In this document: positions 653 to 19,463 of the stretch, in pieces
How positions within the stretch are numbered: the stretch's first letter is position 1
Layout of the letters: each line of letters starts with the position of its first letter
NCBI GenBank assembly: GCA_965220805.1
Contig: OZ244844.1
Coordinates: 3,617,072-3,681,071 of the forward strand
Origin: Alphaproteobacteria bacterium
GTDB taxonomy: Bacteria; Pseudomonadota; Alphaproteobacteria; SP197
Direction: 5' to 3'
Length of the DNA stretch: 64,000 nucleotides
The notes under the pieces: generated by a model
Databases searched by the model: none
The model's input: the letters and a program-made list of their open reading frames with translations, nothing else
What the model was told of the DNA's origin: nothing
Program-made: the position numbers and the translations under genes

Positions 653-1882
653 TCAGACCGTTCTCGAGCCGGAGACGGGTTCGACCGGCTGGACGCGGAA
701 TCCGGCCTCCTGCAGACGTTCGGCAATCCGCCCGATGTGATCACTGTCGAGGGTCTCAAGAACGATATCGAGATCGGCGAGCTTGACCGAGAGATTGGAG
801 AATGCCCTCTGGTGGTGCACCTCGATGATGTTCGCTCCGGTTTCACCGATGATGGAGGTCACTCTGGCCAATACACCCGGTGCATCGGGAATCTCCAGGC
901 CAAGACGGACCATGCGGCCATCCCGCACGAGACCGTGCTCGATCACCATCGACAACACCCGGCTGTCGATGTTGCCACCCGACAGGACAAGACCCACCTT
1001 GCGCCCGCGAAAGCGTTCGGGATGGGCGAGAAGGCAGGCGAGCGACGCAGCCCCTCCGCCTTCCGCAACCGTCTTCTCGATTTCCAGATAGGTCTGGACG
1101 GCGTGTTCCAGCTGGCTCTCGCTCACCAGGACAATGTCCGACACGAGATCCCGGACAATCGGAATGGCGTTCTTCCCGGGCGTCTTCACCGCAATGCCGT
1201 CAGCGATGGTGCGGCCTCCCGCCTTCACCTCCAGCCCCTGGAGCTGCTGGTACATCGAGGGGAACATCTCGGCCTCGACACCGACGATTTCCGCTTCCGG
1301 GCGGATGGCTCTGGCGGCAATGGCGATGCCGCCAATCAGCCCGCCGCCACCGATAGGGACGATGATGACATCAAGGTCGGGCGCATCCTCGAACATCTCG
1401 AGGGCGAGGGTCCCCTGCCCTGCCATGACGTGGTCATCATGATAGGGATGGACAAAGACGAGATTCTCGTCGGCCGCCATAAGATGAGCGGACACGGCCG
1501 CATCGTCGATGGTCTCGCCTGTCAGGATGACCCGGGCGCCAAAGCGCTCGGTATTCCGGACCTTTATTACCGGTGCCCCTTCGGGCATGACGATGGTCGC
1601 CGGAATGCCCAGGCGCTGCGCATGGTAGGCGACGGCCTGGGCGTGATTGCCGGCTGACATCGCGATGACTCCGCGGGAGCGCTCGTCATGTCCGAGAGAA
1701 ACGATCTTCACCAGGGCGCCACGGTCCTTGAAGGATGCCGTAAACTGGTGATTCTCGAACTTCACGAACACGTCGGCCCCGCTCATGGTCGACAACGTGC
1801 GCGAATGGACACAGGGCGTCCTGACGACATGCCCCGCGATCACGCCCGAGGCCTGGTTGATGGAGTCGATCGTCACGCTCAT
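653..1882 (-). CDS. ilvA: Threonine ammonia-lyase / threonine dehydratase (PLP-dependent, one C-terminal ACT-like domain)
   Basis: 409-aa ORF with the PLP-lysine region FENHQFTASFKDRGA, the glycine loop PIGGGGLIGG and a C-terminal regulatory (ACT-like) domain. The family is recognised by motif only. The start overlaps the stop of the upstream gene (1879-1882). Confidence 0.8.
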   Translation of the reverse strand: MSVTIDSINQASGVIAGHVVRTPCVHSRTLSTMSGADVFVKFENHQFTASFKDRGALVKIVSLGHDERSRGVIAMSAGNHAQAVAYHAQRLGIPATIVMPEGAPVIKVRNTERFGARVILTGETIDDAAVSAHLMAADENLVFVHPYHDDHVMAGQGTLALEMFEDAPDLDVIIVPIGGGGLIGGIAIAARAIRPEAEIVGVEAEMFPSMYQQLQGLEVKAGGRTIADGIAVKTPGKNAIPIVRDLVSDIVLVSESQLEHAVQTYLEIEKTVAEGGGAASLACLLAHPERFRGRKVGLVLSGGNIDSRVLSMVIEHGLVRDGRMVRLGLEIPDAPGVLARVTSIIGETGANIIEVHHQRAFSNLSVKLADLDIVLETLDSDHIGRIAERLQEAGFRVQPVEPVSGSRTV

Positions 1883-3504
1883 CGCTCACGTGTCTCCCGG
1901 GCTGCCGGCACGCCAGCCATGACGATGTTGCTTGCGTCTTCCGGCGTGTCGATATCCACCAGAACGGCGCCGTCGTCCATCGCGACCTCGATCACGTAGT
2001 CCCCGTACTCGCCGATAAGGTGTCTCGCGCCGGCATCGCCCGTCACCCTGCGCATCGCCTGGAAGAAGCTGCTGTCCCACAGGACGGGGTTGCCGCGGCG
2101 ACCATTCCATGTCGGCACGACAATCGCCTTGGCCCCGGACCCCTGCCATGCCCGGGCAAGGGATCGCAGCGCCGGGCCAGTGACCGCCGGCATGTCGCCC
2201 AGGCAGACGAATGCCGCACCACAGGAGGTGGGGAGCGCATCGAGACCAGCTTTCAGTGATGTGCTGAGCCCGGCCTCGTGGTCGCTGTTGTCGACAAATG
2301 AGACAGGACAACCCTCAAGGGCTGCACGCACGGCGGGGGCCTGATGGCCGGTCACCACCCGTATGACCGTGATTCCGGCCGAATTGAGGGCGTTCACCAC
2401 GTGGCGCACCATGGGCACGCCATCGATCGTCATCAAGAGCTTGTTGTGCCCGCCCATGCGCCGGCTGCGACCGGCCGCCAGGACGATCGCAGCCGGCATC
2501 TCCCTGCGGCTTCCCGCTACGGGAAGAACACCCGACGGCCGCCCCTTGAGGAGGCCGCCCACGCCCATGGCCTGGATGTCCGTACCGGTCACGCGGATTC
2601 CTGCAGCGAGACGCCCCAGAACGAGATCAAATCCGTTGGGCTGCGGTGACCTGGCACACCCTGGCAGACCGAGAACGCGGGTGCTGCCAATGTGGGCGAG
2701 AAGCAGGAGATTGCCCGGATCAACAGGCATGCCCAGATGATCGACCACGCCGCCTGCGGCCTCGATCGCCGCCGGGATGACATCCCGGCGGTCCGAGATG
2801 GCCGAGGCGCCGTAAACGAGAACGATATCGTGGGTCGCGGCCATGCGGGTGATGGTGTCGCTGAGATCCACAGTGCGGTGCGGGGTCCTGACGCTGTCGC
2901 CCAGGCTCAAGCCGAAACCTTCGATTCTCGCGGTCACCACACTCGTGGTCCGGTCGAGAACCCGGGACTTCACCGCCGGCGAGGTGGTCATGACGAGACC
3001 CGTGCGCCAGGCGCCGAAGGGGGCAATCGCCAGTGCCGGCGCCGTCATGAGACCGATGCATGACTCGACGGTGGCTGATGGCACGGCGAATGGAATGATC
3101 TTGATGGTCGCCACTCTCTCACCCTCGCCCACCGGTTCGAAGCCGGGCAGCGTGGCAATCGTCACCGCCTCGTCGACACCGTTCACGGCCTGCAGCGCAA
3201 CGACGTCGACCGTCACAAGGCCCGCCTGTCTGGCAACGATGTCGACCCGCCCCCTCGAGGCGGGTCTCACCAGCAGATGGGACCCCGCCAGGGCCTGGGC
3301 CACCCTGGTTGCCGCTTCATCCTCCAGGACATCGTCGGTGTCGGGCATGGCGACGAACAGCGAGGTAACACCGGCTGCCACGAGTTCGTCGGCGAGCGCC
3401 TCGTCAAGACGGCGCCCCTTCCTCACGGAAAGCCCTTCAATCGTGACACTGTGGGCAAGAATGCCGCCAACGGCGTCACGCACCGGCACGTCTCCGAACT
3501 TCAC
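1879..3504 (-). CDS. Molybdopterin-binding (MoeA/CinA-like) domain fused to a MobA-like NTP-transferase: putative molybdenum cofactor cytidylyltransferase (MocA-type) accessory protein
   Basis: 541-aa ORF. The C-terminal half carries nucleotidyltransferase motifs (LAAGRSRRMGG..NKLL, CLGDMP, RGNPVLW) like MobA/MocA. The N-terminal half resembles a molybdopterin-binding fold. It overlaps both neighbours by 4 nt, consistent with an operon. Confidence 0.65.
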   Translation of the reverse strand: MKFGDVPVRDAVGGILAHSVTIEGLSVRKGRRLDEALADELVAAGVTSLFVAMPDTDDVLEDEAATRVAQALAGSHLLVRPASRGRVDIVARQAGLVTVDVVALQAVNGVDEAVTIATLPGFEPVGEGERVATIKIIPFAVPSATVESCIGLMTAPALAIAPFGAWRTGLVMTTSPAVKSRVLDRTTSVVTARIEGFGLSLGDSVRTPHRTVDLSDTITRMAATHDIVLVYGASAISDRRDVIPAAIEAAGGVVDHLGMPVDPGNLLLLAHIGSTRVLGLPGCARSPQPNGFDLVLGRLAAGIRVTGTDIQAMGVGGLLKGRPSGVLPVAGSRREMPAAIVLAAGRSRRMGGHNKLLMTIDGVPMVRHVVNALNSAGITVIRVVTGHQAPAVRAALEGCPVSFVDNSDHEAGLSTSLKAGLDALPTSCGAAFVCLGDMPAVTGPALRSLARAWQGSGAKAIVVPTWNGRRGNPVLWDSSFFQAMRRVTGDAGARHLIGEYGDYVIEVAMDDGAVLVDIDTPEDASNIVMAGVPAARETRER

Positions 3505-4187
3505 GGCAGTTTTCCGTTCCGGGCGGCGATGACTTCGGCCATGATCGAAAGCGCAATCTCCTCTGCCGAACGCGCCCCGATGTCGAGACCGACGGGACCG
3601 CGAATTCGCGCCATGGCAAGGCCGTCAATCCCCTCGTCCGCAAGGCGTTCCAGACGTTTTGCGTGGCTGCGCCGGCTGCCCAGGGCACCGATGTAGAAGG
3701 CCGGCGACCCGAGTGCGGCGATCAGCGCCGAATCATCGATTCGGGGTTCGTGAGTCAGTGCCGCCACTGCCGTGCGGTGGTCCGGATCGAGCTGTGCCAG
3801 TGCATCGTCCGGCCAGGCCTCGATCATGCGGACATCGGGAAATCGCCGGGCATCAGCCCAGGCGCGCCGGGGGTCGACGATCACCGGGTCGATACCCGTT
3901 GTCCTGGCAAGGACTGCCAGCGGCTGCGCGACATGAACGGCGCCAACGATGATCAGCCGCACCGGCGGATTGAAGACATGCAGGAAGAGTGGCCGGCCCT
4001 TCACATCCAGCGTCCGGGAGTGATCGAACCGGAACGCCTGCGCAATGTCCTGCGCCAGGGTGGCATCACCAGGAGGGTCATCGTGGCGGATCAGCCATGA
4101 TTCGCCGCTGTCAAGCCAGGTCGCGTGGATGATGCCCTTCCGCTCCCTTCGGGCCTGGTTGAGAGTCCTGAGCGTCTCACCCTTCAT
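3501..4187 (-). CDS. XdhC family protein, C-terminal Rossmann-like domain (stand-alone)
   Basis: 228-aa ORF with the RLIIVGAVHVAQPLA Rossmann-type motif and the ...FYIGALGSRRSHAKRL... region typical of the XdhC/CoxI C-terminal domain. There are 4-nt overlaps at both ends. Confidence 0.7.
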   Translation of the reverse strand: MKGETLRTLNQARRERKGIIHATWLDSGESWLIRHDDPPGDATLAQDIAQAFRFDHSRTLDVKGRPLFLHVFNPPVRLIIVGAVHVAQPLAVLARTTGIDPVIVDPRRAWADARRFPDVRMIEAWPDDALAQLDPDHRTAVAALTHEPRIDDSALIAALGSPAFYIGALGSRRSHAKRLERLADEGIDGLAMARIRGPVGLDIGARSAEEIALSIMAEVIAARNGKLP

Positions 4188-4495
4188 GTCAGTGGCGTGA
4201 CGAAGACCTGCACCGTGCCTCCGCAGGTCAGCCCCACTTCCCAGGCACGTTCGTTGGAGACGGTAAACTCGAGAGTGCGCACCTTTCCCTCCGCCATCGC
4301 TTCGCGCGCCCCTTCGACGACAGCAGCCTCGATGCAGCCTCCCGACACGGAGCCCCTAAAGGATCCGTCCTGGCGCACCACAAGCTGACTCCCCACGGGA
4401 CGGGGACTTGACCCCCAGGTCCTGGTCACGGTTGCCAGCGCAACCTGGTGGCCGTCGCCGGACCAGGCCTCGGCCGTCTCCAGAACATCCTCCAT
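4184..4495 (-). CDS. XdhC/CoxI family protein, N-terminal domain (stand-alone)
   Basis: The ORF track extends to 4513, but the internal Met (MEDVLETAEAWSGDGHQVALATVTRTWGSSPRPVGSQ...) matches the canonical XdhC N-terminus (..ALATVV.T.GSSPR..). Starting at 4495 also removes an overlap with the CoxE-like gene. Confidence 0.65.
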   Translation of the reverse strand: MEDVLETAEAWSGDGHQVALATVTRTWGSSPRPVGSQLVVRQDGSFRGSVSGGCIEAAVVEGAREAMAEGKVRTLEFTVSNERAWEVGLTCGGTVQVFVTPLT

Positions 4496-5679
4496 CAGAC
4501 CTGTCTCAGCCATCCTTCCATGTCCTCCGCAGATCCGCGTCCCGGTCTGGCCAGAATCTCCGCCAGACCTTCGAGACTCGCAAGATTATGGCATGGAAGG
4601 AATCTGTCGACATGTGGCAGCATCGTCCGGATCCCCCATGTGCGGGGACGGAATTCACGCCATCGCAGCAGGGGGTTGAGCCACACCAGTTTCCGGCACG
4701 AGCGCCTGAGCATCGCCATCTCGCGCCCGAGATTGCCACCGACATCGCGGTCAAGCCCATCGGTGACGAGAATGACGATGGTACCCTGGCCGGGAAGACG
4801 ACGGCCCCAGCCGCGATTGAAGGTCCCAAGGCACTCGCCGATGCGAGTGCCGCCGGACCAGTCCTCCACACGCCCGGCGACCGCACGCAGGCCTACCGCA
4901 GCATCCGGCGTTGCCAGATCGCGGGTAACATGGGTGAGCCGGGTGCCAAAGGTGAAGGTATGGACTTTCATCGCACCGACGGTCCATCGGCGAGTACCCG
5001 CCTTGCGGCCGTGCGCCGACAGGGCATGGGCGAAACAGATCAGCATGCGTGCATAGTCGATCATGGAACCCGAGATGTCGCACAACAGCACCACCCCGGG
5101 TGGCTTGTCGACGCGCCGGACGAGAGGCAGCGTGATCATGCCGCCCGGTTGGCGCACGCCCCCCTGCAGCGCCGCCCTCAGATCAATGCGACGGCCGGAT
5201 GGCGAGGGCCTGAGGCGGCGTCCGGCAAGCGGGGCCAGGGCAATCGACATCCGCGCCACCACCTGACGCGCACGAGCCATCTCGTCTTCGTCCATGTCGG
5301 CAAAGTCCATGGTGCGCAGTGCCTCGGCGGGCGACCAGGTTCCCTCTTCTCCGGCTTGCGGGCCGTGTCCCCCGTCTTCTCTTGTGCCCTCCGGCAGTCC
5401 CGGATTCGTGGCTCCGGCCTCGACGACGGGTTCCTGCGTGGCGCTCCCGTCAGCGGGTTCCCCCGACCAGAAGCGGTGAAAGATCCTGGCAAAGAGATCG
5501 CTTTCCTGCTCACGGGAAACGAAAATGGCATGCCACATCCAGAAGACATCCTCGCGCCGGGCGACCCCCGCCAGGTCCAGGGCACGGATGGCGTCGGGCA
5601 CCTTGTCCGGTCCCGCCGCCAAGCCGGCGGCACGCAGGGAACCGGCAAAGCGCACCACGTTGGCCAGGATCGCACTCAC
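4495..5679 (-). CDS. coxE: VWA domain protein of the CoxE type (molybdoenzyme maturation)
   Basis: 394-aa ORF with a C-terminal von Willebrand A fold (VVLLCDISGSM MIDAS-type motif, ...IVILVTDGLD...). Its position directly after a MoxR ATPase matches the CoxD-CoxE pairing. Confidence 0.7.
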   Translation of the reverse strand: MSAILANVVRFAGSLRAAGLAAGPDKVPDAIRALDLAGVARREDVFWMWHAIFVSREQESDLFARIFHRFWSGEPADGSATQEPVVEAGATNPGLPEGTREDGGHGPQAGEEGTWSPAEALRTMDFADMDEDEMARARQVVARMSIALAPLAGRRLRPSPSGRRIDLRAALQGGVRQPGGMITLPLVRRVDKPPGVVLLCDISGSMIDYARMLICFAHALSAHGRKAGTRRWTVGAMKVHTFTFGTRLTHVTRDLATPDAAVGLRAVAGRVEDWSGGTRIGECLGTFNRGWGRRLPGQGTIVILVTDGLDRDVGGNLGREMAMLRRSCRKLVWLNPLLRWREFRPRTWGIRTMLPHVDRFLPCHNLASLEGLAEILARPGRGSAEDMEGWLRQV

Positions 5680-6596
5680 GTGCCGGCTTCCTTCAGCAGC
5701 ACGTCAATGCCGGCATCCCTGATGGCCCGGATGTCGTCCTGGTGCTTGAGCAGCACGCCAAGCGAACTGTCGACAATCTCCGGTTCCAGTGACCGGGTGT
5801 TAAAGTGCTCGAGAGCCATCGCCCAGTCGAGGGTCTCCGCGACCCCCGGGGTCTTGTAGAGATCCTGGCGGCGCAGGGTCTGGACAAACCTGACGATTTC
5901 GGCGCCGAGCCGGTCCCCGCATCCGGGCACCTTGCGCTCCACGATCTCGATCTCCCGCTCGGGCGAGGGGTAGTCGACCCAGTGGTAGAAACAGCGACGC
6001 TTGAGCGCGTCATGCACTTCGCGCGTCCGATTGGAGGTGATGATGACGATCGGTGGCTGGCCTGCCGCCACGGTTCCCAGTTCGGGAATGCTGACCTGCC
6101 AGTCGGACAGCACCTCCAGCAGGTAGGCTTCGAAAGGTTCATCCGTTCGGTCGATCTCGTCGATGAGAAGGACGGGCGGTCCCTCCTCATGAGGGCGCAA
6201 CGCCTCCAGAACGGGCCGGCTGAGCAGGAATTCGTCGCGATAGATCGTGCCGGAGACCGCATCACGATCAACCGCCCCGGCAGCCTCTGCAAGCCGGATC
6301 TCCACCATCTGGCGCGGATAGTTCCACTCATAGACCGCCTGGGCCACATCGAGGCCCTCGTAGCACTGCAGGCGAATGAGCCGGCGGGCGAGCGCGGTTG
6401 CCAGAACCTTCGCCGTCTCCGTCTTGCCAACACCGGCCTCGCCTTCGAGGAAGAGTGGTCTTTCCATGGCCAGCGCCAGGTAGATGGCGCAGGCAAGTCC
6501 GCGCCCGGTGACGTAGTCTTCCGATTCGAGAAGGCGAACGGTCTCGTCAATCGAACCGGGGAGAACCCCGGAGCCCTCCATCACGTGCTGTCGCAT
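5676..6596 (-). CDS. coxD: MoxR-family AAA+ ATPase of the CoxD type
   Basis: 306-aa ORF with Walker A LEGEAGVGKT, Walker B LLIDEIDR and a MoxR-like C-terminal region. It sits immediately upstream of the VWA gene with a 4-nt overlap. Confidence 0.8.
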   Translation of the reverse strand: MRQHVMEGSGVLPGSIDETVRLLESEDYVTGRGLACAIYLALAMERPLFLEGEAGVGKTETAKVLATALARRLIRLQCYEGLDVAQAVYEWNYPRQMVEIRLAEAAGAVDRDAVSGTIYRDEFLLSRPVLEALRPHEEGPPVLLIDEIDRTDEPFEAYLLEVLSDWQVSIPELGTVAAGQPPIVIITSNRTREVHDALKRRCFYHWVDYPSPEREIEIVERKVPGCGDRLGAEIVRFVQTLRRQDLYKTPGVAETLDWAMALEHFNTRSLEPEIVDSSLGVLLKHQDDIRAIRDAGIDVLLKEAGT

Positions 6597-9541
6597 CGGG
6601 CGTCATCCATCCATGCTGCGACTGCGCCGGCCAGCGCGTCGATGCCGTGACCGAGAGAGAATTCCCGCCGCAACCGGCACCTGCCTTCCGTCATCGTGAC
6701 ATGCATCGATCCGGATGTCCCTTCCCCGCGGTCATAGTGGAACTCCAGTGCATCGTAGACCCGCTCTCCGCGGTCGGCGAAGGCAACGACCCCAGGCGAC
6801 GAGGTACGCAACTCCGCCATGTCAACTACAAGACCCTCCTCGCCAGGCAACACGTCGACCTCGCCATCGAGAAGACTCTCCAGACCGAGTCCCGCTACTC
6901 CGGCATGGTCGAGAAGCGATCCGGCATCGAGGCCGGAAAGACGGAGTTTCATCATATTGCCGTCATGGCCCAGGGGTTCGACCCTGAACGGCTTGCCCGT
7001 GGGCAGACTGGCCACGACGCTCTCCACCACCAGCGTGCCGTCGCCAGGCCAGGACACCGACACCTCGACATCCTGGAGCGGCAGAAGGGCATCGAGACCG
7101 GCGATCGTGAACGTTTGGGCAGACGACGTCTCCAGCGGCAGGAGGTGGGTGAAGGTGCTGGTGCCGGAGACCTGTCGCACCTGGACACCGGCGATCCTGG
7201 CGGAGACGTCATTGATGGTGACAGCAAGATCAGCGCCGGACTCTTCTCCCTCGAACCAGAGCGTTCCCGTGACAGCCACGCCTCCCTGGACATCGCTGAA
7301 GGGCGCACCATAGAGAGGGGAGAGGTCCGCCGGCTGCAGGCCCGGGACCTCGAACAGCGCACTGATGGTCTTCACGGAGGCCTCCAGACGGTCCCGTCCC
7401 GGCATGTAGCGGGCATCGACGGCACCGAGGAACCGCGCCTTGTCGGCGTGGAGGGTCATCGACATGCGCGCATCGTCGCCGTCCGGCCACACGGGTGTTG
7501 CCACGACATCCACCGACATCCGGGTAAAGCGTTGCGGGTCTCTCAAGTCCTCGATCTCCCGGATATCGGCACTGAACTGCGGCCAGGGCGACAGACCCGA
7601 ATTGTAGTTGAGGAGGGCACGGACATCCCTGACCCTGAGGTCCGGCCCCCTGAGGACGAGATCACCGCCTTCTGCATCCATGGTTGCCTGCAGGTAGTTG
7701 GCGCCCAGACTCTCGAGACGGATCCCGAGCTCAGGCAACACTCCCTCGATCTTCACGGGACGCGGCGTGTCGGCGAGAACGACCGCATGCAGCGGTGTAT
7801 CGCTGAGCTGCAGACGCAGATCCCAGGAAAGATCATTTCCCAGCCGTTCAAGGACAAAGAGAGGGAGTGATTCCCTTTCGAGCTTGACGGAGACCGGCCC
7901 CACGAGGCGCACGGGACCATGTGTGAAGGTCTGCAGGTCGATCCAGCCGGTGTCGCTCTGACGAACCTCGATACCGCGCTCCATGACATCGATTCCGAAC
8001 GGCAGCTCCAGGTCCACGCCGCCCACGACCAGGACTTCGCTGCGAACCTCGCCAACATGCAGGAGCGCGGAGGAATCGCTGCCGAGGAGGTGGTTGCCGG
8101 TACCGGTCGCGAGTGTCAGCGGAAGATCGAGAACGATGTTGTAGAAGGTGGTGTCCGCCATCACCACCTCCTCCAGAAGACCGTGAATCCCGATGCCGCC
8201 CCGCCAGGCATCCGGTCCGCGGGCCACGTCGGCGGATCCGGTTACATGACCCGACACATCACCCTCCATGACGAGATCGAGGTCCGGAATCCTGAGCGCG
8301 ACAACACGGCCGGCATGGTCGAACGCGACATCGCCCCTGATGAGAGCCCGGCCATGGCCCCGTCCCGTCACCTCGCCCGATGCCTCGAGAACCACGGCAA
8401 GGTCCACGCCGTCACCCTGCCGCATCGCCTCCAGCGAGACCGCCTCCATGGAAAGGTCAAGGCGCAGGCCATCGCCAAGATGGAGAACGAGAGGAAGGGG
8501 CGCGCCGAGCGATGCCCGCCATCGACCATCCTCGAGGGACAGGTCCGTGGCGAAGTTCGCACCCTCCACCGACAGCCATGATCCCAGGCGCAGGTCAGCT
8601 GTTTCCACGACGCCGTCGCCCGTGATCGTCCAGCTTGCCGGCTCGGACATCTCAGCAGTTCGGGCGTGGAGTCGCAGGGCGGCATGGAGCGACGTGCCTG
8701 ACGTCACCACGCCCTCCACCTGCCAGTCCCCGCCTTCGCCCGTGACATCGATGTCGGCGGTGAGCGAAATCCTGCCACCGGAGAGTGTGGCCGTTCCCTT
8801 GATGCCCGTGCCGTCCACGGTGCCTTCGATCTCGAGATCGCCCGCTGCGAGGCCAGGCCACCCCAGACGAACACGGACATCCGGCTGAGGGCTCGTCACA
8901 CCATCCACCACGATGCGGCCGCCGGGAAGACCGGCACCCTCCCCCCCTGGCGTGATGTCAATCATCGCCTGGTCAACGGTTTCGCGCCAGATGAAGGCAA
9001 GGTCACCGGCACCCTCCAGCCCCATGAGTTTTGCCTGCCAGTTCCCGGTGCCGGTCAATCCGTTCCGCTGATCGTCGAGCTTCGCGTCGAAGCGAAGGAT
9101 GATGGCGCCCCACGGTCCGGAAATGTCGAGACGCGCGTCCTCGGCAACAACGTCCGCCGCCAGCGAGGTCATGCCGGCCGCCACCTCTGACAGACCAGAC
9201 CAGTCCGACTCCCATCCCCTGAGTGTCAATCGCTCGAGGTGGCCGGAGGTGAGTCCGCCGAAACTCCAAAGGACCCGGGCTTCTTCGATCGTGCCTCCGG
9301 AATCGAGCACGACATTGGTCATGGTGACGGTCCCAAACGTCACCTCCGCCACCTCGAATTCGACAACCGCATCGCCAAGGCTGCGGTCGATCAGCCATCC
9401 TGCGATCTCGTGACGGGCCCCGTGGAGGCCGGCGGTCATGGCCGCTCCGGTCACAAGCACGACCAGCGCAATGATTCTTCCGGGACGTTTGGGCCATCGG
9501 GGCATGGCCCTATCATGCCTGATGCCCGGCGGTGGCGTCAC
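6581..9541 (-). CDS. Large membrane-anchored envelope protein, possibly AsmA/YdbH-like (986 aa)
   Basis: Longest ORF in the window. It has an N-terminal hydrophobic anchor (RIIALVVLVTGAAMTAGL), then a Gly/Asp/Thr/Val/Leu-rich beta-type sequence with few charged runs. Third-codon positions are GC-rich, as in real genes here. The overlapping plus-strand ORFs are Arg/His-rich and look spurious. The family assignment is tentative. The start could instead be the Met at 9505. Confidence 0.4.
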   Translation of the reverse strand: MTPPPGIRHDRAMPRWPKRPGRIIALVVLVTGAAMTAGLHGARHEIAGWLIDRSLGDAVVEFEVAEVTFGTVTMTNVVLDSGGTIEEARVLWSFGGLTSGHLERLTLRGWESDWSGLSEVAAGMTSLAADVVAEDARLDISGPWGAIILRFDAKLDDQRNGLTGTGNWQAKLMGLEGAGDLAFIWRETVDQAMIDITPGGEGAGLPGGRIVVDGVTSPQPDVRVRLGWPGLAAGDLEIEGTVDGTGIKGTATLSGGRISLTADIDVTGEGGDWQVEGVVTSGTSLHAALRLHARTAEMSEPASWTITGDGVVETADLRLGSWLSVEGANFATDLSLEDGRWRASLGAPLPLVLHLGDGLRLDLSMEAVSLEAMRQGDGVDLAVVLEASGEVTGRGHGRALIRGDVAFDHAGRVVALRIPDLDLVMEGDVSGHVTGSADVARGPDAWRGGIGIHGLLEEVVMADTTFYNIVLDLPLTLATGTGNHLLGSDSSALLHVGEVRSEVLVVGGVDLELPFGIDVMERGIEVRQSDTGWIDLQTFTHGPVRLVGPVSVKLERESLPLFVLERLGNDLSWDLRLQLSDTPLHAVVLADTPRPVKIEGVLPELGIRLESLGANYLQATMDAEGGDLVLRGPDLRVRDVRALLNYNSGLSPWPQFSADIREIEDLRDPQRFTRMSVDVVATPVWPDGDDARMSMTLHADKARFLGAVDARYMPGRDRLEASVKTISALFEVPGLQPADLSPLYGAPFSDVQGGVAVTGTLWFEGEESGADLAVTINDVSARIAGVQVRQVSGTSTFTHLLPLETSSAQTFTIAGLDALLPLQDVEVSVSWPGDGTLVVESVVASLPTGKPFRVEPLGHDGNMMKLRLSGLDAGSLLDHAGVAGLGLESLLDGEVDVLPGEEGLVVDMAELRTSSPGVVAFADRGERVYDALEFHYDRGEGTSGSMHVTMTEGRCRLRREFSLGHGIDALAGAVAAWMDDARCDST

Positions 9542-12401: not shown

Positions 12402-12568
12402 CTCCGATGATGCCGGCGGCCACCCGCCGCGCCTGAATATCTGGTGCGACGCCTGTCACACGCGATCCGAACAATCCGGTGATTGACGGTATTTTTTCGC
12501 CGGTTTGCTGTCAACGAACCGCTGAAGAGTCCTCCACAGGCGTCATGATGTGCCCCGGTCACCGGCAT

Positions 12569-13756
12569 CTACCACCAGAAGTCGGGAGAATGGGTGAGGA
12601 TCTCGTTTCCGCCGGCATGGACAATGAGATTCTGTTCGTGCGCGGCGGTGCCGGTTCCTTCGCTGTCAAGAAAGACCTCGACGCCGAGAACCATACCGGC
12701 TTCAAAGCGCTCGTGCGCTTCACACATTGTGAGGCCGATGTAGGGATGCTCCCAGTAGAGACCGGTGCCGTGTCCATAGAGCGGCCACTGGGCGCTCATC
12801 TGGCTGGAGCCCTGGCGATGGCAGTCCGTCAGCCGGTCTCCCAGACGCGCCACATCGTGGACCAGGACACCCGGCCGGATAGCCTCGATCAACGTGTCCA
12901 CGATCGTCACGCAACTCTCGATGAGGGACCGCTGCTCGTCTGTCGGCCTGCCGCCGGCAACCGCCGTGCGGCCGGGATCGAGCCAGTATCCCTGGTAGAT
13001 GATGCTGTCGAGCCAGCCCCTGACGAGATCGCCCGGGCGTGGCACGTCACGACTGGCGCCTGTCAGCGGCTCCGACGTCCAGTGGCCGATGTGAGGTCCA
13101 TGGGCTACCGGAATCATCTGCGATACCGCGCCGGACCGGCGCAATTCTCGGATTGCGTCGCCCACGGCTTCTGCCTCGGACATGCCGCCCACGAGACCTG
13201 TCATGAGCAAGTCGAGGGAACGTGTCGCGATCTCTCCGGCTTCGCGAAAGACCTCCATCTCGGCCGGGCTCTTGATGCGGCGGGCGCGCTGGATGAGGGT
13301 GTCATCCTCGGTCCAGGCGACATTCCCGGCCGCGGACCGGATGAGCCGCCAGTACTTGAGGGGCAGGAAGTCGGCCCCCACCAGGGCGATGGTGCCATCG
13401 ATGGCACGTTCCGCCAGCGCCCGGCCGGCGGCGGACATGGGATCGTTGTGACCGCTGACATGCCCCGTGGCGAGGCGATCACGGCGCGGCTCGGGATCAT
13501 CGATCAGGAGTTGCGGTTCGCGGCCTTCCTCGAGCAGGAGAGCCGAGAACGAGCGCGCCGTGTTGAGCGGGTTGTCGACTTCGTGACCCGATGCCGGGGA
13601 ATAGTGATTGGCCAGATAGAGGACATCGCCGCTGCGGTCGTAGGAACCGCCGCCACGGCCGATCACAAGGGCCGCGGCATGTCCGCGCCGACGCATGTCT
13701 TCGTGCACACGGCGCCAGCGATCCTCGTACTCCTCCCGCGCAAAGGGAGTCCTCAT
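12569..13756 (-). CDS. M24 family metallopeptidase / creatinase-like (Xaa-Pro aminopeptidase fold)
   Basis: 395-aa ORF with a creatinase-type N-domain and a pita-bread C-domain (metal-ligand regions ..HGTGL.., ..GMVLGVEVF..). Its stop overlaps the start of the upstream aminotransferase (13753-13756). Confidence 0.7.
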   Translation of the reverse strand: MRTPFAREEYEDRWRRVHEDMRRRGHAAALVIGRGGGSYDRSGDVLYLANHYSPASGHEVDNPLNTARSFSALLLEEGREPQLLIDDPEPRRDRLATGHVSGHNDPMSAAGRALAERAIDGTIALVGADFLPLKYWRLIRSAAGNVAWTEDDTLIQRARRIKSPAEMEVFREAGEIATRSLDLLMTGLVGGMSEAEAVGDAIRELRRSGAVSQMIPVAHGPHIGHWTSEPLTGASRDVPRPGDLVRGWLDSIIYQGYWLDPGRTAVAGGRPTDEQRSLIESCVTIVDTLIEAIRPGVLVHDVARLGDRLTDCHRQGSSQMSAQWPLYGHGTGLYWEHPYIGLTMCEAHERFEAGMVLGVEVFLDSEGTGTAAHEQNLIVHAGGNEILTHSPDFWW

Positions 13757-14943
13757 GGTTCAGGTGAATCGCCGCGAACCTTGCGCAGGCCGACGCCGAG
13801 ACGGCGGACACCTTCGTCGATTTCCTCGACCGTCGGGAAGCCGAAGGCGAGGCGGATGACCGATCCGGCGTCGTTCCTCACATGGAATGCCGAACCGTCG
13901 ACGACCTCCACCCCCTCGTCACGGGCCACGTCGACGAGACGGACAGGATCGACATCGTCGGGCAGCCGCACCCAGATGAAGAGGCCGCCTGGCGGGCGGA
14001 CAACGGAACACGCGTTGCCCAGTTCCCGCCTGAGCGCGTTCATCATGGTGTCGCGCTTGACCTTCAGCGCCCGGTTGGCCATGGCGACATGGTCCCACAG
14101 GCAATCCTTCAGGTATGCATGGGTGATGGCGGACGCCAGGGTGTTGGGTCCCGCGTCATGACGCTTCGCCAGCACGTTGTCGAGCATGGGTGGCCGCGCC
14201 ACCATGTAGCCGAGGCGCACGCCGGGAGCGAAGATCTTGGAAAGGGAACACAGGTAGATCAGCGAGGGGGACGGATCGAGCGCGTAGAGTGCCGGAGGAA
14301 CGTCACCGTCGAAGTGGACGTCTCCGTAACAGTTGTCCTCGACGATCGGGACGCCATGACGCCCGGCAATGGCGATCATCTCCAGGCGGCGGGACCGCGG
14401 CATCACCGTGCCGGTCGGGTTCTGGTAGGTGGCAAGGGTGTAGATGCAGCTGGGTCGACGTCCCTGGCTCGCCAGTGACTGAAGAGTGTCCTCAAGAGCC
14501 TCCATCACCATGCCATCGCCGTCGACCGGAACGCCCACCATCTCGATTCCCATGGAGCCGAAGGCAACGATGCTCCCCGAATAGCTGAGCTCCTCCATGA
14601 TGACGATGTCGTCCACTCCGGTGCACAGCGTCTCCACGGCCAGAGTGACGGCCTGCATGGAACCGTTGGTGATCAGCACGTGATCGGGATCCACCGATAT
14701 TCCCTCGCGGTCCATTTCGCGCCGGGCCATCAGCTGGCGCAGCCCTTCATGACCGAGACTCCCGGGATAGGTGGTGAGATCCACTGCCATGGTACGCATC
14801 ACATCGGCCGCAGCCTCGGCGAAGTCTGTCACCGGAAAGGTCTCCGGATTGGCGTTGCCACTGGCAAAACTGATCAACCCATTATCCATGCCTTTTCTCC
14901 GGCTCCCTGCCCTCACAATAGCTGCGAGAGGCCTGCGGAACAT
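13753..14943 (-). CDS. PLP-dependent aminotransferase (class I/II fold)
   Basis: 396-aa ORF with fold-type I aminotransferase motifs (..SLSKIFAPGVRLGY.. PLP-lysine region). There is no N-terminal HTH, so it is not a MocR regulator. The start may be the internal Met at 14889. Confidence 0.8.
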   Translation of the reverse strand: MFRRPLAAIVRAGSRRKGMDNGLISFASGNANPETFPVTDFAEAAADVMRTMAVDLTTYPGSLGHEGLRQLMARREMDREGISVDPDHVLITNGSMQAVTLAVETLCTGVDDIVIMEELSYSGSIVAFGSMGIEMVGVPVDGDGMVMEALEDTLQSLASQGRRPSCIYTLATYQNPTGTVMPRSRRLEMIAIAGRHGVPIVEDNCYGDVHFDGDVPPALYALDPSPSLIYLCSLSKIFAPGVRLGYMVARPPMLDNVLAKRHDAGPNTLASAITHAYLKDCLWDHVAMANRALKVKRDTMMNALRRELGNACSVVRPPGGLFIWVRLPDDVDPVRLVDVARDEGVEVVDGSAFHVRNDAGSVIRLAFGFPTVEEIDEGVRRLGVGLRKVRGDSPEP

Positions 14944-15001
14944 CCCCCACCTTCGCGCGCGAGACCTTCTTCCAGAGGATTGACGAGTCTATCCTCTCCC
15001 G

Positions 15002-16729
15002 ATGAAAGGGGCGCCTGGACAACTGACGCGATACGAGGACGCTGCGGGGCGAGCCCTCGCCGATCGCTACGAGTCCATCGACCCCGACGCGCTTCATGCC
15101 TGGTTCGCCGATCAGTTGCCGCCTCCACCGGCTGCCGTGCTCGACGTCGGCGCCGGATCGGGCCGCGACGCGGCGTGGTTCGCCGCAATGGCCTACGAGG
15201 TCGTGGCTGTCGACCCGTCGGCGACGATGCTCGCCGAAGCGCGACAAAGACACTCGACACCACAAATCACCTGGATCCGCGATTGCCTGCCGTCGCTCGA
15301 CCGCGTTGTGGGGCGGGGCCTGAGCTATGACGTCATTCTGCTCAACGCCGTGTGGATGCATGTCCATCCGAACGAACGGCAACGCGCCTTTCGCAAGCTC
15401 ATCGGCCTCCTCAAGCCCGGCGGACTCATCATCTTCGCGCTGCGTGTCGGCGGCAACGACGCCGACGACGACATGCATGCCTCCAGCGCCGCCGAGATTG
15501 AATCTCTCGCCCGTCGCCACGGCGCCATGGCGCTTTCCAGGAATACCACGCCGGACAGTTTTGGCCGTCCCGACATCAGATGGGAGCAGGTGGCCCTGCA
15601 GCTTCCCGATGACGGCACCGGCGCGCTCCCGCTGCTTCGCCACATCATCCTCAACGACCGGAAGTCATCGACCTACAAGCTCGGCCTGCTTCGCGCCGTG
15701 GCGCGGGCCGCCGACAGCGCCCCCGGCATGGCGCACCACGAGAATGACGACACCGTTACCGTGCCTCTCGGTCTCGTCGCTCTCAACTGGCTCAGACTCT
15801 ACAAGTCGCTCATCGACGCCAGACTGCCGCAGCGCCCCGGCAGCGATGGACTGACCAATCTTGGATTTGTCAGGCAAGGCTGGCGTGACATCCGCGATCT
15901 CCCCGCCTTCGACTTGCGTGTCGGCCAGCGCCTTTCAGGTTCCCTCGCCCGTGGCCTGCACCAGGCGCTTCGGGATGCCGTTGACACGCTGGTGAGGATG
16001 CCGATCCACTTCATGACGCTTCCTGGTTCCGACGAACAGGTGTTCGAGGCTCGCAAGGCGAAGGCCGGTAGAGCATCCGACTCCGTCCTCGTGGATCGGG
16101 AGTATCTGGCGCAGTTCGGCGACCTTCGCATACCCGTCCATCTCTGGAACTCGCTCATGCGCCATGACGCGTGGATCGAGCCCGCGCTGATCGGTGAATG
16201 GATGAAGCTGATGACGGACTGGGCGACGACACAGGGCAACGAACTCGACCATCGGCGCGTCGAAGCCGCCATGCGATGGTCCGATCCCGACCGTGATGTT
16301 GGATTCGCCCGAAAGATCTCTCAACAACTCCTTGAAAATGATGACCTCTATTGTGTCTGGACGGGTCGAAGGCTGGACGGCAAGCGACTCAACATCGATC
16401 ACTGCATGCCGTGGGCGGCATGGCCGTGCGATGCCCTGTGGAACCTCTTGCCCACCGACAGGCACGTCAACCAGCGCCAGAAACGCGCCCGGCTTCCCTC
16501 AGCAGACGCTCTCGACGACGCCCGGGACAGGATCTGCACATGGTGGCAGGAGGGCTATGTGAAACGGGCGCGTGACCGGTTCTTTGCCGAAGCCCGCTCC
16601 TCCCTGATGCTCGACCCCTCCGGGATTGCGGATGCCGACAAGGTCTTTGAAGGACTTCAGGGCCGACGGCAGATGTTGCGCACCGAGCACCGGATCGAGG
16701 AATGGGCGCCACCTGCCTTTTCCCCGTGA
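15002..16729 (+). CDS. Fusion protein: N-terminal class I SAM-dependent methyltransferase fold + unknown central domain + C-terminal HNH (His-Me finger) nuclease motif
   Basis: 575-aa ORF. The N-terminus has SAM-binding motif I VLDVGAGSGRD and post-I/II motifs (DVILLNAVWMHV, LKPGGLIIFAL). The C-terminus has CVWTG...NIDHCMPWAAWPCDALWNLLPTDRHVNQRQK with the D-H / N / H triad of HNH nucleases. It is a solitary plus-strand gene, and part of the C-terminal half has lower GC than its surroundings. Confidence 0.6.
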   Translation: MKGAPGQLTRYEDAAGRALADRYESIDPDALHAWFADQLPPPPAAVLDVGAGSGRDAAWFAAMAYEVVAVDPSATMLAEARQRHSTPQITWIRDCLPSLDRVVGRGLSYDVILLNAVWMHVHPNERQRAFRKLIGLLKPGGLIIFALRVGGNDADDDMHASSAAEIESLARRHGAMALSRNTTPDSFGRPDIRWEQVALQLPDDGTGALPLLRHIILNDRKSSTYKLGLLRAVARAADSAPGMAHHENDDTVTVPLGLVALNWLRLYKSLIDARLPQRPGSDGLTNLGFVRQGWRDIRDLPAFDLRVGQRLSGSLARGLHQALRDAVDTLVRMPIHFMTLPGSDEQVFEARKAKAGRASDSVLVDREYLAQFGDLRIPVHLWNSLMRHDAWIEPALIGEWMKLMTDWATTQGNELDHRRVEAAMRWSDPDRDVGFARKISQQLLENDDLYCVWTGRRLDGKRLNIDHCMPWAAWPCDALWNLLPTDRHVNQRQKRARLPSADALDDARDRICTWWQEGYVKRARDRFFAEARSSLMLDPSGIADADKVFEGLQGRRQMLRTEHRIEEWAPPAFSP

Positions 16730-17771: not shown

Positions 17772-18446
17772 TCAGTCCGGGGCACCGGCAACAAATCCCT
17801 CGCCCACATGAGTGGCCTTCCAGCTCTCGAGCTGTTCGACGCCTTCGGTCATCCAGCGAACCAGATTGGGATGGTCATCCAGCGGCAGTTGCGCCCACTC
17901 GTGGAGATGCATCGGTGCGGCCACCGCAATGTCGGCAATCGTGACGGCGTCGCCGGTGAGCCATGGATTGTCCGCCAGGCGATCATCGAGAATGCCGGCG
18001 AGCTTGTGGAAATTGTCGGCCTCCCCGGCCAGCACGGCAGGATCGGTGGTATCGCCGAGCAGCGGCTTCACGCAGTTCTCGACCAGGTAGATGTAGCAGG
18101 ATGGAAACCATGAGGCGGCTTCCCACAACAACCAGCGATTGACATCGGCTCGGGCTGCGGGCTCTGAGGGATAGCAGTCCTCGCGACCCGTCTTCTCGGC
18201 CGCGTACTGCATGATGGCGTTCGATTCCCAGAGCACGAGGTCACCATCCCTGAGTGCCGGCAGCGCTGCATTCGGATTGATCTTCCGAAAGGCCTCGCCT
18301 GCCTGCTCCCCGGCGAAGTAATCGACCTTGGTGAGTTCGTAGTCAGCGCCAAGCAGGTGCAGCCCGGCAAGCACCTTGCGGCAGTTCACCGTAATCGGAT
18401 CAGCAAAGAGTTCCATCGTGTCCTCCACAATCTTGGTTCCAGCCAT
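17772..18446 (-). CDS. Glutathione S-transferase
   Basis: 224-aa ORF with an N-terminal thioredoxin-like GST domain (..LPALRDGDLVLWESNAIMQY..) and a helical C-domain. An alternative start is the Met at 18416. Confidence 0.75.
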   Translation of the reverse strand: MAGTKIVEDTMELFADPITVNCRKVLAGLHLLGADYELTKVDYFAGEQAGEAFRKINPNAALPALRDGDLVLWESNAIMQYAAEKTGREDCYPSEPAARADVNRWLLWEAASWFPSCYIYLVENCVKPLLGDTTDPAVLAGEADNFHKLAGILDDRLADNPWLTGDAVTIADIAVAAPMHLHEWAQLPLDDHPNLVRWMTEGVEQLESWKATHVGEGFVAGAPD

Positions 18447-18497
18447 TCCATCGTGGCAGAATGGCCCGCGTTACACCATCCATCAGGAAGTTCATTG

Positions 18498-19463
18498 ATG
18501 ACACATTCGCCAGGCACCGGACGCTTCAACTATCTCGGCGCATCGGTGGAACCCTCCCTCTACCGCAATGGCAAGGTGCTGACCCGTCGTGACCGCGACG
18601 GCAGCGACGACCACTGGGTCGGCGTCGACCTCGAGGAGTACCCGATGCCGGTATGCGATGCCCGCCAACTCGATGCCGCGCAACGCCCGACACTCGCGCA
18701 CAATGGTTTCTGCATGACCCGAAATCCCCTGGCGCATTCCGATTTCGACTTTCTCAGTCACAACGAGGTGGTGCGCCGCTACTATCCGGAGTGTGCCGAC
18801 ATCGTGCGCGAGGCGAGTGGCGCAACCTTCGCCGCCGCCTTCGATCACAACGTGCGTTCGGCTGGCGGCAAGTCCAGCCGCAGCCGCATCAGCGGCGGCC
18901 AGGAGGTGCAGGGACCCGCGCATGTGGTCCACGGCGACTACACCCTCACCAGCGCTCCGCAACGGCTCCGCGACCTGACAAGACCGCCGGGCGAGAACGA
19001 CACCCTCTCCACGGTGCTTGCCGACGGCACGTCGCTGCTCGACAGGGACGAAGTTGACTGCGCTCTCACCTCCGGACGGTTTGCCATCATCAACGTCTGG
19101 CGCAACGTGAGGCCGGAACCGGTCGCCACCCATCCCCTGGCGCTGTGCGATGCAGCCAGCGTGAATCCGGACGACCTGGTCGTCTTCGAGATTCACTATG
19201 CTGACCGCATCGGAGAGAACTACTTCGCGCGGCACGCCGATGCCCACCAGTGGACCTTCTATTCGGCGCTCACCCGTGACGAGGTCCTGGTCCTCAAGCA
19301 ATGGGATTCGGACGGGACGCTCGCTTCGTCCGGGGGCGAGCGCGGAGACGGCGACGCCACCTCCACCTTCAGCTTTCACAGTGCCTTCGAGGACCCGTCG
19401 ACACCGGACGACGCACCCGACCGCTGGAGCATCGAGGTCCGCTGCGTCGCGCTCTGGTCCTGA
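18498..19463 (+). CDS. Uncharacterized protein, possibly CmcJ/NvfI-like hydroxylase-type fold
   Basis: The ORF track starts at 18357 inside the convergent GST gene. The in-frame ATG at 18498 gives a 321-aa product (MTHSPGTGRF...). The His/Asp-containing segments (AHVVHGDYT, HQWTF) suggest a metal-dependent oxygenase-like family. The assignment is weak. Confidence 0.4.
   Translation: MTHSPGTGRFNYLGASVEPSLYRNGKVLTRRDRDGSDDHWVGVDLEEYPMPVCDARQLDAAQRPTLAHNGFCMTRNPLAHSDFDFLSHNEVVRRYYPECADIVREASGATFAAAFDHNVRSAGGKSSRSRISGGQEVQGPAHVVHGDYTLTSAPQRLRDLTRPPGENDTLSTVLADGTSLLDRDEVDCALTSGRFAIINVWRNVRPEPVATHPLALCDAASVNPDDLVVFEIHYADRIGENYFARHADAHQWTFYSALTRDEVLVLKQWDSDGTLASSGGERGDGDATSTFSFHSAFEDPSTPDDAPDRWSIEVRCVALWS

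Follow-up and report, generated by a model that had tools for sequence, protein, structure and literature searches.

A class I SAM methyltransferase, a tandem winged-helix module and a Cas9-type HNH domain joined in one bacterial protein, a candidate conflict nuclease

A 575-residue alphaproteobacterial protein unites three modules in one chain: a SAM-dependent methyltransferase, a tandem winged-helix module and a Cas9-type HNH nuclease domain. This three-part architecture, proposed in a first-pass annotation of the same DNA, is borne out by profile searches and structure prediction. No curated family was found that covers it, and literature searches on the methyltransferase-winged-helix-HNH combination returned no paper describing it, in keeping with the original impression of an undescribed family. 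Our best explanation, held with middling confidence, is that the protein is a stand-alone enzyme acting as a DNA-targeting conflict or defence nuclease, akin in logic to the type IV enzymes that couple a reader domain to an HNH nuclease.

The gene occupies positions 15002..16729 (+) of the window, the 64,000-nucleotide stretch analysed here, and runs from an ATG start codon through 575 codons to a stop codon. Its completeness is supported by the list of open reading frames, by full-length homologues (48-96% identity) and by an AlphaFold2 model (pLDDT 83.9, pTM 0.83); the reading frame and the peptides quoted at first pass agree with it exactly. It is a real, intact gene and not a high-GC shadow ORF, because the protein has 3982 database relatives (E = 0 for many), its N-terminus agrees with those of its homologues, and its GC3 of 75.7% is similar to that of neighbouring genes. 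A Foldseek search of the model against the PDB gave nothing at E <= 1e-3, and the better-ranked weak matches were all Cas9 or other HNH domains. In the model, the chain ends in a helical tail (residues 536-575; 16607..16726, +), which is the least conserved stretch of the protein, with a mean pairwise identity of 39%.

The N-terminal domain (residues 1-200; 15002..15601, +) is a TehB/RPA2492-like class I SAM methyltransferase of the small-molecule type. Pfam Methyltransf_25 matches residues 46-141 with 62.8 bits (cut-off 27; E 5e-17), Methyltransf_11 scores 57.5 bits (cut-off 21.2) and the TehB profile 24.7 bits (cut-off 20.4), which upholds the initial assignment to this class. The domain adopts the seven-stranded Rossmann-like fold and contains motif I (L47-D-V-G-A-G-S-G-R-D56), a strand-4 region (D110-V-I-L-L-N-A-V-W-M-H120) and a basic helix (R126, R128, R131, K132). 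Among 34 aligned members, D48-x-G50-x-G52-x-G54-R55-D56 is invariant, and D94 is kept in 31 and replaced by E in two; by analogy with the class I fold, the motif I residues would bind SAM and D94 would be the acidic residue that contacts its adenine. Residues Y23, W118, H120, R126, R128, R131 and K132, at positions that usually line the acceptor site beyond the SAM pocket, are invariant or nearly so. RPA2492 (PDB 3e23) and the TehB-like methyltransferases are single-domain proteins of small-molecule or unknown function, whereas the family's copy is fused to a DNA-binding module and a nuclease.

Motif IV of DNA amino-methyltransferases is missing from this domain, as had been remarked from the single sequence. 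The pattern [DNS]PP[YFWH] is present in none of the 34 aligned members, where the position reads L-(S/N)-A-V-W-M-H, and [DNS]PP[YFW] likewise in 0/34; the 60 structural matches listed for the domain include no DNA methyltransferase. These observations bear on the idea of a type IIG-like restriction-modification (R-M) enzyme, in which the methyltransferase would mark host DNA at a site chosen by the central module, leaving unmethylated foreign DNA to be cut by the HNH domain. Such an enzyme would explain why methyltransferase, DNA-recognition module and nuclease share a single chain, as they do in the type IIG/IIL enzymes MmeI and BpuSI, and both catalytic centres appear intact to judge from their residues. 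The PADLOC profile mad2 also matches the methyltransferase region (residues 23-153; E 7e-21), although over only 132 of its 492 positions (271-402). However, MmeI/BpuSI-type enzymes are gamma-class N6-adenine methyltransferases with an NPPY/DPPY motif, variable target-recognition domains and PD-(D/E)XK nucleases, whereas in the present family the methyltransferase is a minimal one of the small-molecule type that lacks motif IV, the DNA-binding module is highly conserved and the nuclease is of the HNH kind. Its DNA-binding region, with a mean pairwise identity of 63%, is the most conserved of the domains in the 34 aligned members, unlike a variable target-recognition domain, so that all members would have one common specificity, as R-M systems do not. 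A type IIG-like function is therefore improbable. By analogy with these enzymes, SAM likely influences cleavage in the family.

The central module (residues ~205-445) is a tandem winged-helix module. The first-pass annotation could put no name to these ~250 residues; no Pfam, NCBIfam or PADLOC family matches them, but their fold could be recognised. The first winged-helix domain (residues ~205-300; 15614..15901, +) is better conserved than any other part of the protein and carries the signature D219-x-K221-x-x-T224-Y225-K226-L-x-L-L, followed by P255...W263. The second alpha/beta region (residues ~301-445; 15902..16336, +), in which P334, W382, E399 and W400 are invariant, is probably a second winged-helix-like domain with a helical linker.

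The sulfur-binding domain (SBD) of type IV restriction enzymes was considered as a relative of the first central domain and rejected at the sequence level. Pfam PF26340, to which a precomputed annotation assigns the SBD homologue P0285, gave no match at E <= 1; an hhalign comparison with an alignment of 22 SBD sequences, reached through an SBD-HNH neighbour in Nostoc, gave a probability of 0.1%; and the family profile found no SBD in the PDB at E <= 10. Any likeness would thus be one of fold only, and the family shows no profile relationship to the SBDs of the SBD-HNH and SBD-SRA-HNH type IV enzymes (ScoMcrA, SprMcrA, EcoWI, Hga). Known sulfur pockets are built from H-(R/K) and Y-P residues (PMC6224610, PMC7461809). 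Judged by sequence position, [Y/H]225-K226 and V-P255-L of the family lie at helix starts topologically similar to those pocket positions. In a phosphorothioate-directed enzyme, the first central domain would be a divergent sulfur-binding reader, and the methyltransferase, the HNH domain or both would act on phosphorothioated DNA; we regard this as very unlikely. The family has two parts that SBD-HNH enzymes lack, its second central domain and the SAM methyltransferase at the N-terminus. Its nuclease is the Cas9-like H-N-N domain (HNH_4), whereas HNH_2 is the nuclease in the neighbours examined, SBD-HNH and other restriction types alike. The resemblance to type IV restriction lies in the architecture of a reader-like domain with HNH, and in co-location with type IV enzymes.

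The C-terminal nuclease (residues 446-535; 16337..16606, +) is an HNH, or His-Me finger, domain of the Cas9/HNH_4 type with the beta-beta-alpha-metal fold. Its core, C451...D466-H467...N481...N490...K494, spans nucleotides 16352-16483. Pfam HNH_4 scores 24.8-25.6 bits (cut-off 22), and every one of the 33 members in one alignment (A2) matches it at E <= 1, with a best E of 6e-8. D466, H467, N481, N490 and K494 do not vary across 34 members and four distant relatives, and 149 of 159 full-length members match a strict regular expression for the motif. Judged from these residues, the nuclease motif is catalytically intact. The general base of the D-H pair and the structural Asn had been identified correctly, but the supposed metal-binding His, H488 of DRHVN, sits in a column occupied variously by T, S, R, H or V. 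It is N490 that does not vary, and the motif accordingly takes the H-N-N form known from Cas9. With its catalytic residues invariant, the domain is not a decayed zinc ribbon, an outcome that had been named as fatal to a nuclease assignment.

Cas9 HNH provides the best match to residues 446-535 in both sequence and structure. The two share the D-H pair, a structural Asn, a metal-binding Asn and a following K-x-x-x-P-S helix. Unlike Cas9, the family lacks RuvC, the REC and PAM-interacting lobes and any CRISPR context, and the likeness is confined to the nuclease domain of about 90 residues.

The central module and HNH_4 also occur together without the methyltransferase. Distant relatives of ~387 aa, labelled 'HNH endonuclease domain-containing protein', are carried on plasmids of Nostoc, Tolypothrix, Deinococcus and Hymenobacter; they differ from the 575-aa family in having no methyltransferase, and share the remaining modules with it at 21-24% alignment identity (25-31% by tblastn). 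They keep D219, K221, Y225, K226, W263, P334, W382, E399, W400, D466, H467, N481, N490 and K494. Their existence indicates that the winged-helix and HNH core is an autonomous unit. In Nostoc, Tolypothrix, D. radiophilus and Hymenobacter, the gene follows a small ORF of 79-94 aa, HTH_17-like in Hymenobacter. Three of the six relatives adjoin an HNH_2 nuclease, and one of these nucleases is a bona fide SBD-HNH. Apparent short members of the family itself among the representative proteins are mostly truncated ORFs or starts mis-called inside the methyltransferase domain; a few, such as P0174 and P0214, truly differ at the N-terminus.

Within the window, the gene stands among metabolic or transport genes. 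A class I/II aminotransferase gene on the minus strand, correctly named from the start, matches PDB 1x0m (E 2e-61) and diverges from it across a 58-bp intergenic region (14944..15001). This region presumably holds both promoters, a function that we infer, since a simple sigma-70 scan of it gave no match. A same-strand ORF of 297 aa, a putative EamA exporter in the first-pass annotation, begins 130 bp downstream, and no terminator-like site lies between the two, which does not bear out the description of the gene as monocistronic. The 3' half, thought to be AT-richer, differs marginally in GC content (62.3%, against a window mean of 63.8% with an SD of 2.8% in 300-bp windows, 9% of which have <= 60% GC). 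Six related alphaproteobacterial MAG loci share the gene order Amt-M24-aminotransferase-GENE-membrane protein-GST, with 75-96% identity of the gene. Because composition is ordinary and synteny is kept, the hint of recent horizontal acquisition drawn from base composition finds no support at this locus and was rejected. Together with the metabolic and transport neighbours, these features indicate that the window offers no defence-island context, and they count against the conflict-nuclease reading.

The same features suit a housekeeping or regulatory enzyme, in which a metabolic or RNA/DNA-processing methyltransferase would be joined to a winged-helix/HNH half serving repair, recombination or autoregulation. 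Stable synteny among metabolic genes, a methyltransferase fold like that of small-molecule enzymes and strong purifying selection over the full protein length are what such a role would leave behind. The family is nearly always about 570 aa long and retains ~50% identity across phyla with almost no indels, a conservation unusually high for a defence gene, and the resemblance of the methyltransferase to small-molecule enzymes only makes a metabolic acceptor possible. However, the gene is rare and patchily distributed, being present in at least 592 of 185,579 species representatives (roughly 0.3%, a lower bound) from at least seven phyla, and its neighbourhood differs in almost every lineage. 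Carriers comprise hundreds of species, many of them sponge-associated and soil lineages, among Alpha-, Beta- and Gammaproteobacteria, Acidobacteriota, Nitrospirota, Cyanobacteria, Myxococcota and Actinomycetes. The closest relative of a copy is in some cases found in another phylum: a Nitrospiraceae copy, for example, has 82% identity to an alphaproteobacterial copy, against only 52% to other Nitrospirota copies. Plasmids of Roseomonas, Azospirillum, Sphingobium, Sinorhizobium and Pseudoalteromonas carry the gene, and IS elements flank some copies. The family is therefore an accessory, horizontally moving one. These traits, the invariant HNH catalytic residues and the restriction nucleases that recur alongside make a housekeeping role unlikely.

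Neighbouring genes in other genomes favour the conflict-nuclease reading. All ORFs of at least 90 aa from 80 loci were clustered, and no conserved partner gene emerged, in agreement with the gene having been called solitary; the sole cluster recurring in more than six loci consists of generic ABC-transporter ATPases (19 loci, varying positions), and cluster 16, which at first looked like an operon partner, turned out to be a shadow ORF antisense to the aminotransferase gene. The kinds of neighbour that recur, counted as raw sightings across loci, are type IV restriction nucleases (HNH_2, McrBC, Mrr), SspC/BrxC ATPases, SNases, toxin-antitoxin pairs and transposases. In loci L009, L018, L023, L026 and L045, the gene directly adjoins an HNH_2-type nuclease ORF (identified by similarity only in L018 and L026). 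That of L023 weakly resembles the PUA-HNH enzyme 6yex (E 0.13), that of L045 has a type IV N-terminal match, and L026 also contains Mrr and DUF2779. An SspC/BrxC ATPase gene diverges from the family gene in L052 and L055, and a PPK2-like ORF beside SspC in L055 matches PDB 21fy 'PptA'. McrC, a DUF3578 protein and VapBC accompany the Roseomonas plasmid copy, and a thermonuclease and an HNH endonuclease the Azospirillum copy. Further neighbours include PDC-S41, PDC-M33A, a cytosine methyltransferase, AbiEi, DarG, SoFic and transposases.

The frequent position beside restriction enzymes makes a single-gene defence nuclease plausible, and the early notion of a conflict system gains from these neighbours and from plasmid carriage. 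The more specific proposal of a modification/cleavage or toxin-type enzyme fares unevenly: the genomic contexts support the conflict type, but classical R-M logic is unlikely because the protein lacks the DNA-amino-methyltransferase motif and its DNA-binding module, instead of varying as a specificity domain would, is conserved more strongly than any other part. The family is essentially absent from phages (0 in 50,697 phage records; one partial match in 2.9 million viral contigs), which marks it as a host-side gene. Against the conflict-nuclease reading, no full-length PADLOC model matched, PDC candidate models included. Pooled PADLOC matches among the neighbours, not assigned to single ORFs, include mad3 and mad8. 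Mad2 is described as an N6 DNA methyltransferase (bioRxiv 10.1101/2023.03.30.534895). Membership in MADS was rejected, the mad2 match being at domain level only, the N6 methyltransferase catalytic motif absent and the checked flanks an aminotransferase and transporter/metabolic-like ORFs. Septu was rejected as well, with PtuB E-values of only 0.005-0.03 and, besides the ABC-transporter ATPases, no neighbour in more than 6/80 loci.

Taken together, the domains with their intact motifs, the accessory mobile character, the defence and mobile-element neighbours and the host-side occurrence lead us to infer that DNA is the target, that the role is defensive and that SAM is coupled to nuclease action. 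In the enzyme so pictured, the tandem winged-helix module would dock the protein on DNA. Its conservation, higher than elsewhere in the protein, suggests that what it reads is probably a constant feature, be it a modification, some property of the backbone or a DNA structure, and not a variable sequence. The H-N-N HNH domain would then nick or cleave nearby with one divalent metal ion, and the TehB/RPA2492-like methyltransferase would bind SAM and tie nuclease action to it, whether through methylation of an acceptor other than a base or through licensing of the cut. Such licensing by SAM is a feature of type I, III and IIG enzymes, and there are phages that break SAM down to escape restriction and BREX.

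That background also feeds an abortive-infection variant, in which the methyltransferase would be a SAM/SAH sensor guarding the SAM level, and SAM depletion by a phage would free the HNH domain for indiscriminate DNA cutting. The SAM-binding motifs are invariant, the structure suggests no methyl acceptor, and neither a partner nor a separate antitoxin or protective modification gene accompanies the family gene. However, the invariance or near-invariance of the acceptor-site residues listed above suggests real catalysis on a substrate, and we know of no experimental precedent for a small-molecule-type methyltransferase serving a nuclease as SAM sensor. We consider this variant a minority prospect.

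If the methyltransferase does act on a substrate, the acceptor may lie outside the bases. The TehB-like clade methylates S, Se and Te nucleophiles. A single-polypeptide conflict enzyme could be imagined in which such a methyltransferase methylates a non-base DNA position and the invariant reader and the HNH domain sense or exploit that chemistry; in its most concrete version, the methyl group would go to a phosphorothioate sulfur, to a phosphate or to a DNA end. Such an enzyme is a long shot, but if real, it would be the first to 'write, erase or cut' at the backbone in a SAM-dependent manner.

If the conflict-nuclease reading is right, the family would be a compact single-gene defence system missed by current catalogues, with a PADLOC match at domain level only. 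So strongly conserved a DNA-binding module suggests that its ligand is universal, which would make the protein a candidate reagent for the detection of a DNA modification or structure. If the protein is instead a metabolic methyltransferase, the intact HNH domain would still call for an explanation. What sets the family apart is a fully conserved small-molecule-type SAM methyltransferase joined to a Cas9-like HNH domain. This fusion points either to a new coupling between nuclease immunity and SAM status or to an unrecognised nucleic-acid methylation chemistry, and either outcome would be of interest to the restriction and defence field and to enzyme discovery.

The methyltransferase-HNH gene (15002..16729, +) begins with ATG and encodes 575 aa. 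In a window of 64% GC, the length of an open reading frame (ORF) is by itself weak evidence for a gene. For example, a 560-aa ORF at 12479..14161 (+) was rejected as a typical high-GC shadow, antisense to two real genes encoding M24-peptidase-like and aminotransferase proteins. Its equivalent in related loci was likewise discarded as a conserved operon partner, being an antisense shadow. The methyltransferase-HNH ORF is nevertheless a real gene, as indicated by its 3982 database relatives (many full-length at E = 0), an N-terminus common to the aligned homologues, and a GC3 of 75.7% versus 73-85% in neighbouring genes. The peptides quoted in the first-pass annotation, made from the sequence alone, match its translation exactly.

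The protein comprises a class I methyltransferase, a tandem winged-helix module, an HNH_4 nuclease and a short helical tail, a reading that follows from Pfam matches, structural models and a profile match to the Cas9 HNH domain. Pfam places Methyltransf_25, 11, 12, 23 and 31 and TehB on residues 35-148, all over cut-off, and HNH_4 on residues 451-499 (24.8 bits, cut-off 22). NCBIfam yields many small-molecule methyltransferases, sub-threshold only, and the Cas9d HNH at the domain level; in PADLOC, 'mad2' matches at the domain level (E 7e-21, profile positions 271-402 of 492) and PtuB marginally. An AlphaFold2 model built with 34 homologues in the alignment was confident (pLDDT 83.9, pTM 0.83), and a second model of residues 196-575 was better (pLDDT 88.8, pTM 0.89), with the HNH core resolved. 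Foldseek returned no significant match for the target model, and its better-ranked weak matches were all Cas9 or other HNH domains. A PDB search with the family profile reached the Cas9 HNH at E 4e-4, in an alignment spanning the D-H pair, two Asn residues and the K-x-x-x-P-S helix.

Residue conservation, assessed in 34 diverse family members, extends across all three modules. Invariant positions include D48, G50, G52, G54, R55 and D56 of methyltransferase motif I; W118 and the basic helix R126, R128, R131 and K132; K221, T224 and K226 of the central signature, in which D219 and Y225 are nearly so; P255 and W263; and C451, W453, D466, H467, N481, N490 and K494 of the HNH. The first-pass annotation had assigned metal binding to H488, which varies in the family; as in Cas9, it is N490 that serves as the invariant ligand. 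Mean pairwise identity is highest in the first winged-helix domain (63%), compared with 50-55% in the methyltransferase, the second central region and the HNH, and 39% in the tail. When 159 full-length members were screened with strict regular expressions, the HNH was recovered in 149, motif I in 148 and the winged-helix signature in 151, most failures being minor motif variants. These counts, together with the invariant HNH residues, therefore argue against a degenerate HNH and against homologues without catalytic residues, either of which would have undercut the earlier proposal of an intact nuclease. The [DNS]PP[YFWH] motif is absent from all 34 members, and classical restriction-modification logic, in which the methyltransferase would methylate bases, is very unlikely. 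One low-GC member, P0214 (524 aa), has a degenerate N-terminal domain with I-V-S-G-E-K-K in place of the D-x-G-x-G-x-G-R-D of motif I; some lineages may be losing the methyltransferase or have replaced it.

In the window, a verified class I/II aminotransferase gene and ORFs whose translations read as ammonium-transporter-like and M24-peptidase-like lie upstream of the gene, all on the opposite strand; the downstream ORFs, the first 130 bp away, read as a membrane protein, a GST-like and an SDR-like protein. Simple scans found no promoter-like or terminator-like site at the gene. A housekeeping or metabolic role is rather unlikely. The gene order is kept in six loci of related alphaproteobacterial MAGs, with neighbours 88-99% and the gene itself 75-96% identical to those of the window. 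A 368-aa ORF at 18357-19463 (+) also occupies the same position in four related MAG loci (L002, L003, L007 and L042), at 88-90% identity. Composition had earlier been read as a hint of horizontal acquisition, a suggestion undone by the gene's GC content, 64.1% where the window averages 63.8%, and by the kept order. The gene has thus been resident in this lineage for some time.

Across other genomes, the gene is accessory: rare, mobile and host-side. Relatives occur in at least 592 species in a survey of one genome per species. Carriers among the matches listed include Alphaproteobacteria, with many Paracoccaceae and Rhodobacterales, Acidobacteriota (Vicinamibacterales, Bryobacterales), Nitrospirota, Betaproteobacteria, Cyanobacteria, Myxococcota and Actinomycetes; judged from isolate names, many carrier MAGs appear to be sponge-associated. 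Residues 190-575 matched 1306 of 1.84 billion cluster representatives at E <= 1e-3. In the best 150 of these clusters, the match mostly starts near residue 185-200 of a protein of about 570 aa, and shorter entries mostly have truncated methyltransferase domains. Some members have their nearest relatives in another phylum. For example, a Nitrospiraceae copy shares 82% identity with a copy from Alphaproteobacteria but just 52% with the other Nitrospirota copies, a pattern to which MAG binning errors may contribute. Plasmids carry full-length copies in Roseomonas, Azospirillum, Sphingobium, Sinorhizobium and Pseudoalteromonas. The phage collection searched contained no member, and 2.9 million viral contigs gave one partial match.

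Clustering the ORFs of 80 loci revealed no conserved neighbour of the family. Defence and mobile-element genes recur among the 147 immediate neighbours scanned in 37 non-redundant loci. HNH_2-type nuclease ORFs with differing N-terminal domains directly adjoin the family gene in L009, L018, L023, L026 and L045, those of L018 and L026 being recognised by their similarity to the other three and not by the scan. Other neighbours are Mrr and DUF2779 (L026); SNase nucleases (L012, L016); a thermonuclease (an Azospirillum locus); McrC, a DUF3578 protein and VapBC (a Roseomonas plasmid); and, at further loci, PDC-S41, PDC-M33A, a cytosine methyltransferase, DrmD-like and BrxHI-like proteins, AbiEi, DarG, SoFic and several transposases. 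On the Roseomonas mucosa plasmid p2-HV1 (L083:3463-6248), a member adjoins hxsB and hxsC, which encode His-Xaa-Ser radical-SAM maturases; transposases of IS1182 and IS5 flank it, as does the toxin-antitoxin pair BrnT/BrnA.

In two Vicinamibacterales loci (L052, L055), an SspC/BrxC-type ATPase gene (E 1.8e-263) divergently adjoins the family gene. The L055 copy is intact (4318-7935, -; 1205 aa). The L052 copy (1471-7906, -) is split into an N-terminal piece (7397-7906) and a body (1471-4605, E 1.8e-263) by an insert of about 2.8 kb, which looks like a mobile element because paralogues of its two ORFs occur in L062 and at other places in L052. Only a 75-aa remnant persists in L056/L057, and a distant ATPase of this type occurs in a Myxococcota locus. 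Just downstream of the L055 ATPase, an ORF at 3518-4672 (-) matches PDB 21fy 'PptA' (E 2.6e-9) and PPK2-type polyphosphate:AMP phosphotransferase, and an HNH_2-like ORF comes next; ATPase, kinase and nuclease may form an uncharacterised system. No sspB, sspD or dnd gene was identified beside the ATPases.

Distant relatives of about 387 aa (25-31% identity, tblastn) on Nostoc, Tolypothrix, Deinococcus and Hymenobacter plasmids lack the methyltransferase and keep all signature residues. A same-strand ORF of 79-94 aa precedes four of them (L082:6612-8452, L084:5720-7134, L086:5768-7188 and L081:6268-8125) and could encode a controller or antitoxin-like regulator absent from the methyltransferase-fused family; on the Hymenobacter plasmid (L082) it is HTH_17-like, and a MazG-like NTP pyrophosphohydrolase follows the relative. 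HNH_2 nucleases adjoin three of six such relatives. The one in Nostoc is a bona fide fusion of HNH to the sulfur-binding domain (SBD) of phosphorothioate-dependent restriction enzymes, its N-terminus matching the SBD structure 8h0l at E 3e-16. On Nostoc sp. PCC 7120 plasmid pCC7120delta (L081:5294-8125), the 387-aa relative, an HNH_4 protein, is divergent from this SBD-HNH gene with small ORFs between, and the Tolypothrix plasmid (L086) has the identical arrangement. Among solved folds, the SBD appears to be the nearest to the central winged-helix module of the family. PF26340, the Pfam family given for one SBD homologue by precomputed annotation, does not match the target, and hhalign of the central region (44 sequences) against the SBD alignment gave a probability of 0.1%; the domain is therefore not classed as an SBD. 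A phosphorothioate-directed activity is very unlikely.

Proteins that join a reader domain to an HNH nuclease, and single-chain methyltransferase-nucleases, are known, and this family is of the same general kind. What is undescribed is the joining of a methyltransferase of small-molecule type to an invariant tandem winged helix and an HNH of Cas9 type: Pfam, NCBIfam and PADLOC have no family that spans the protein or its central module, the sole label given by the source databases is 'class I SAM-dependent methyltransferase', and the literature searched for the architecture yielded nothing. The domains comprise a SAM methyltransferase that looks enzymatically competent, a module of DNA-binding type and an intact one-metal HNH nuclease, and the gene is solitary, mobile, host-side and often found among restriction genes. 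Domains and gene context together give about an even chance that the product is a stand-alone DNA-targeting nuclease of defence or conflict type. Because its reader module is invariant, such a nuclease would be expected to read one unvarying chemical or structural feature instead of a range of sequences, and its action would be coupled to SAM. A guard that senses SAM is a minor possibility. The window itself offers no defence context; as a stand-alone nuclease of this type, the family is a good, testable candidate.
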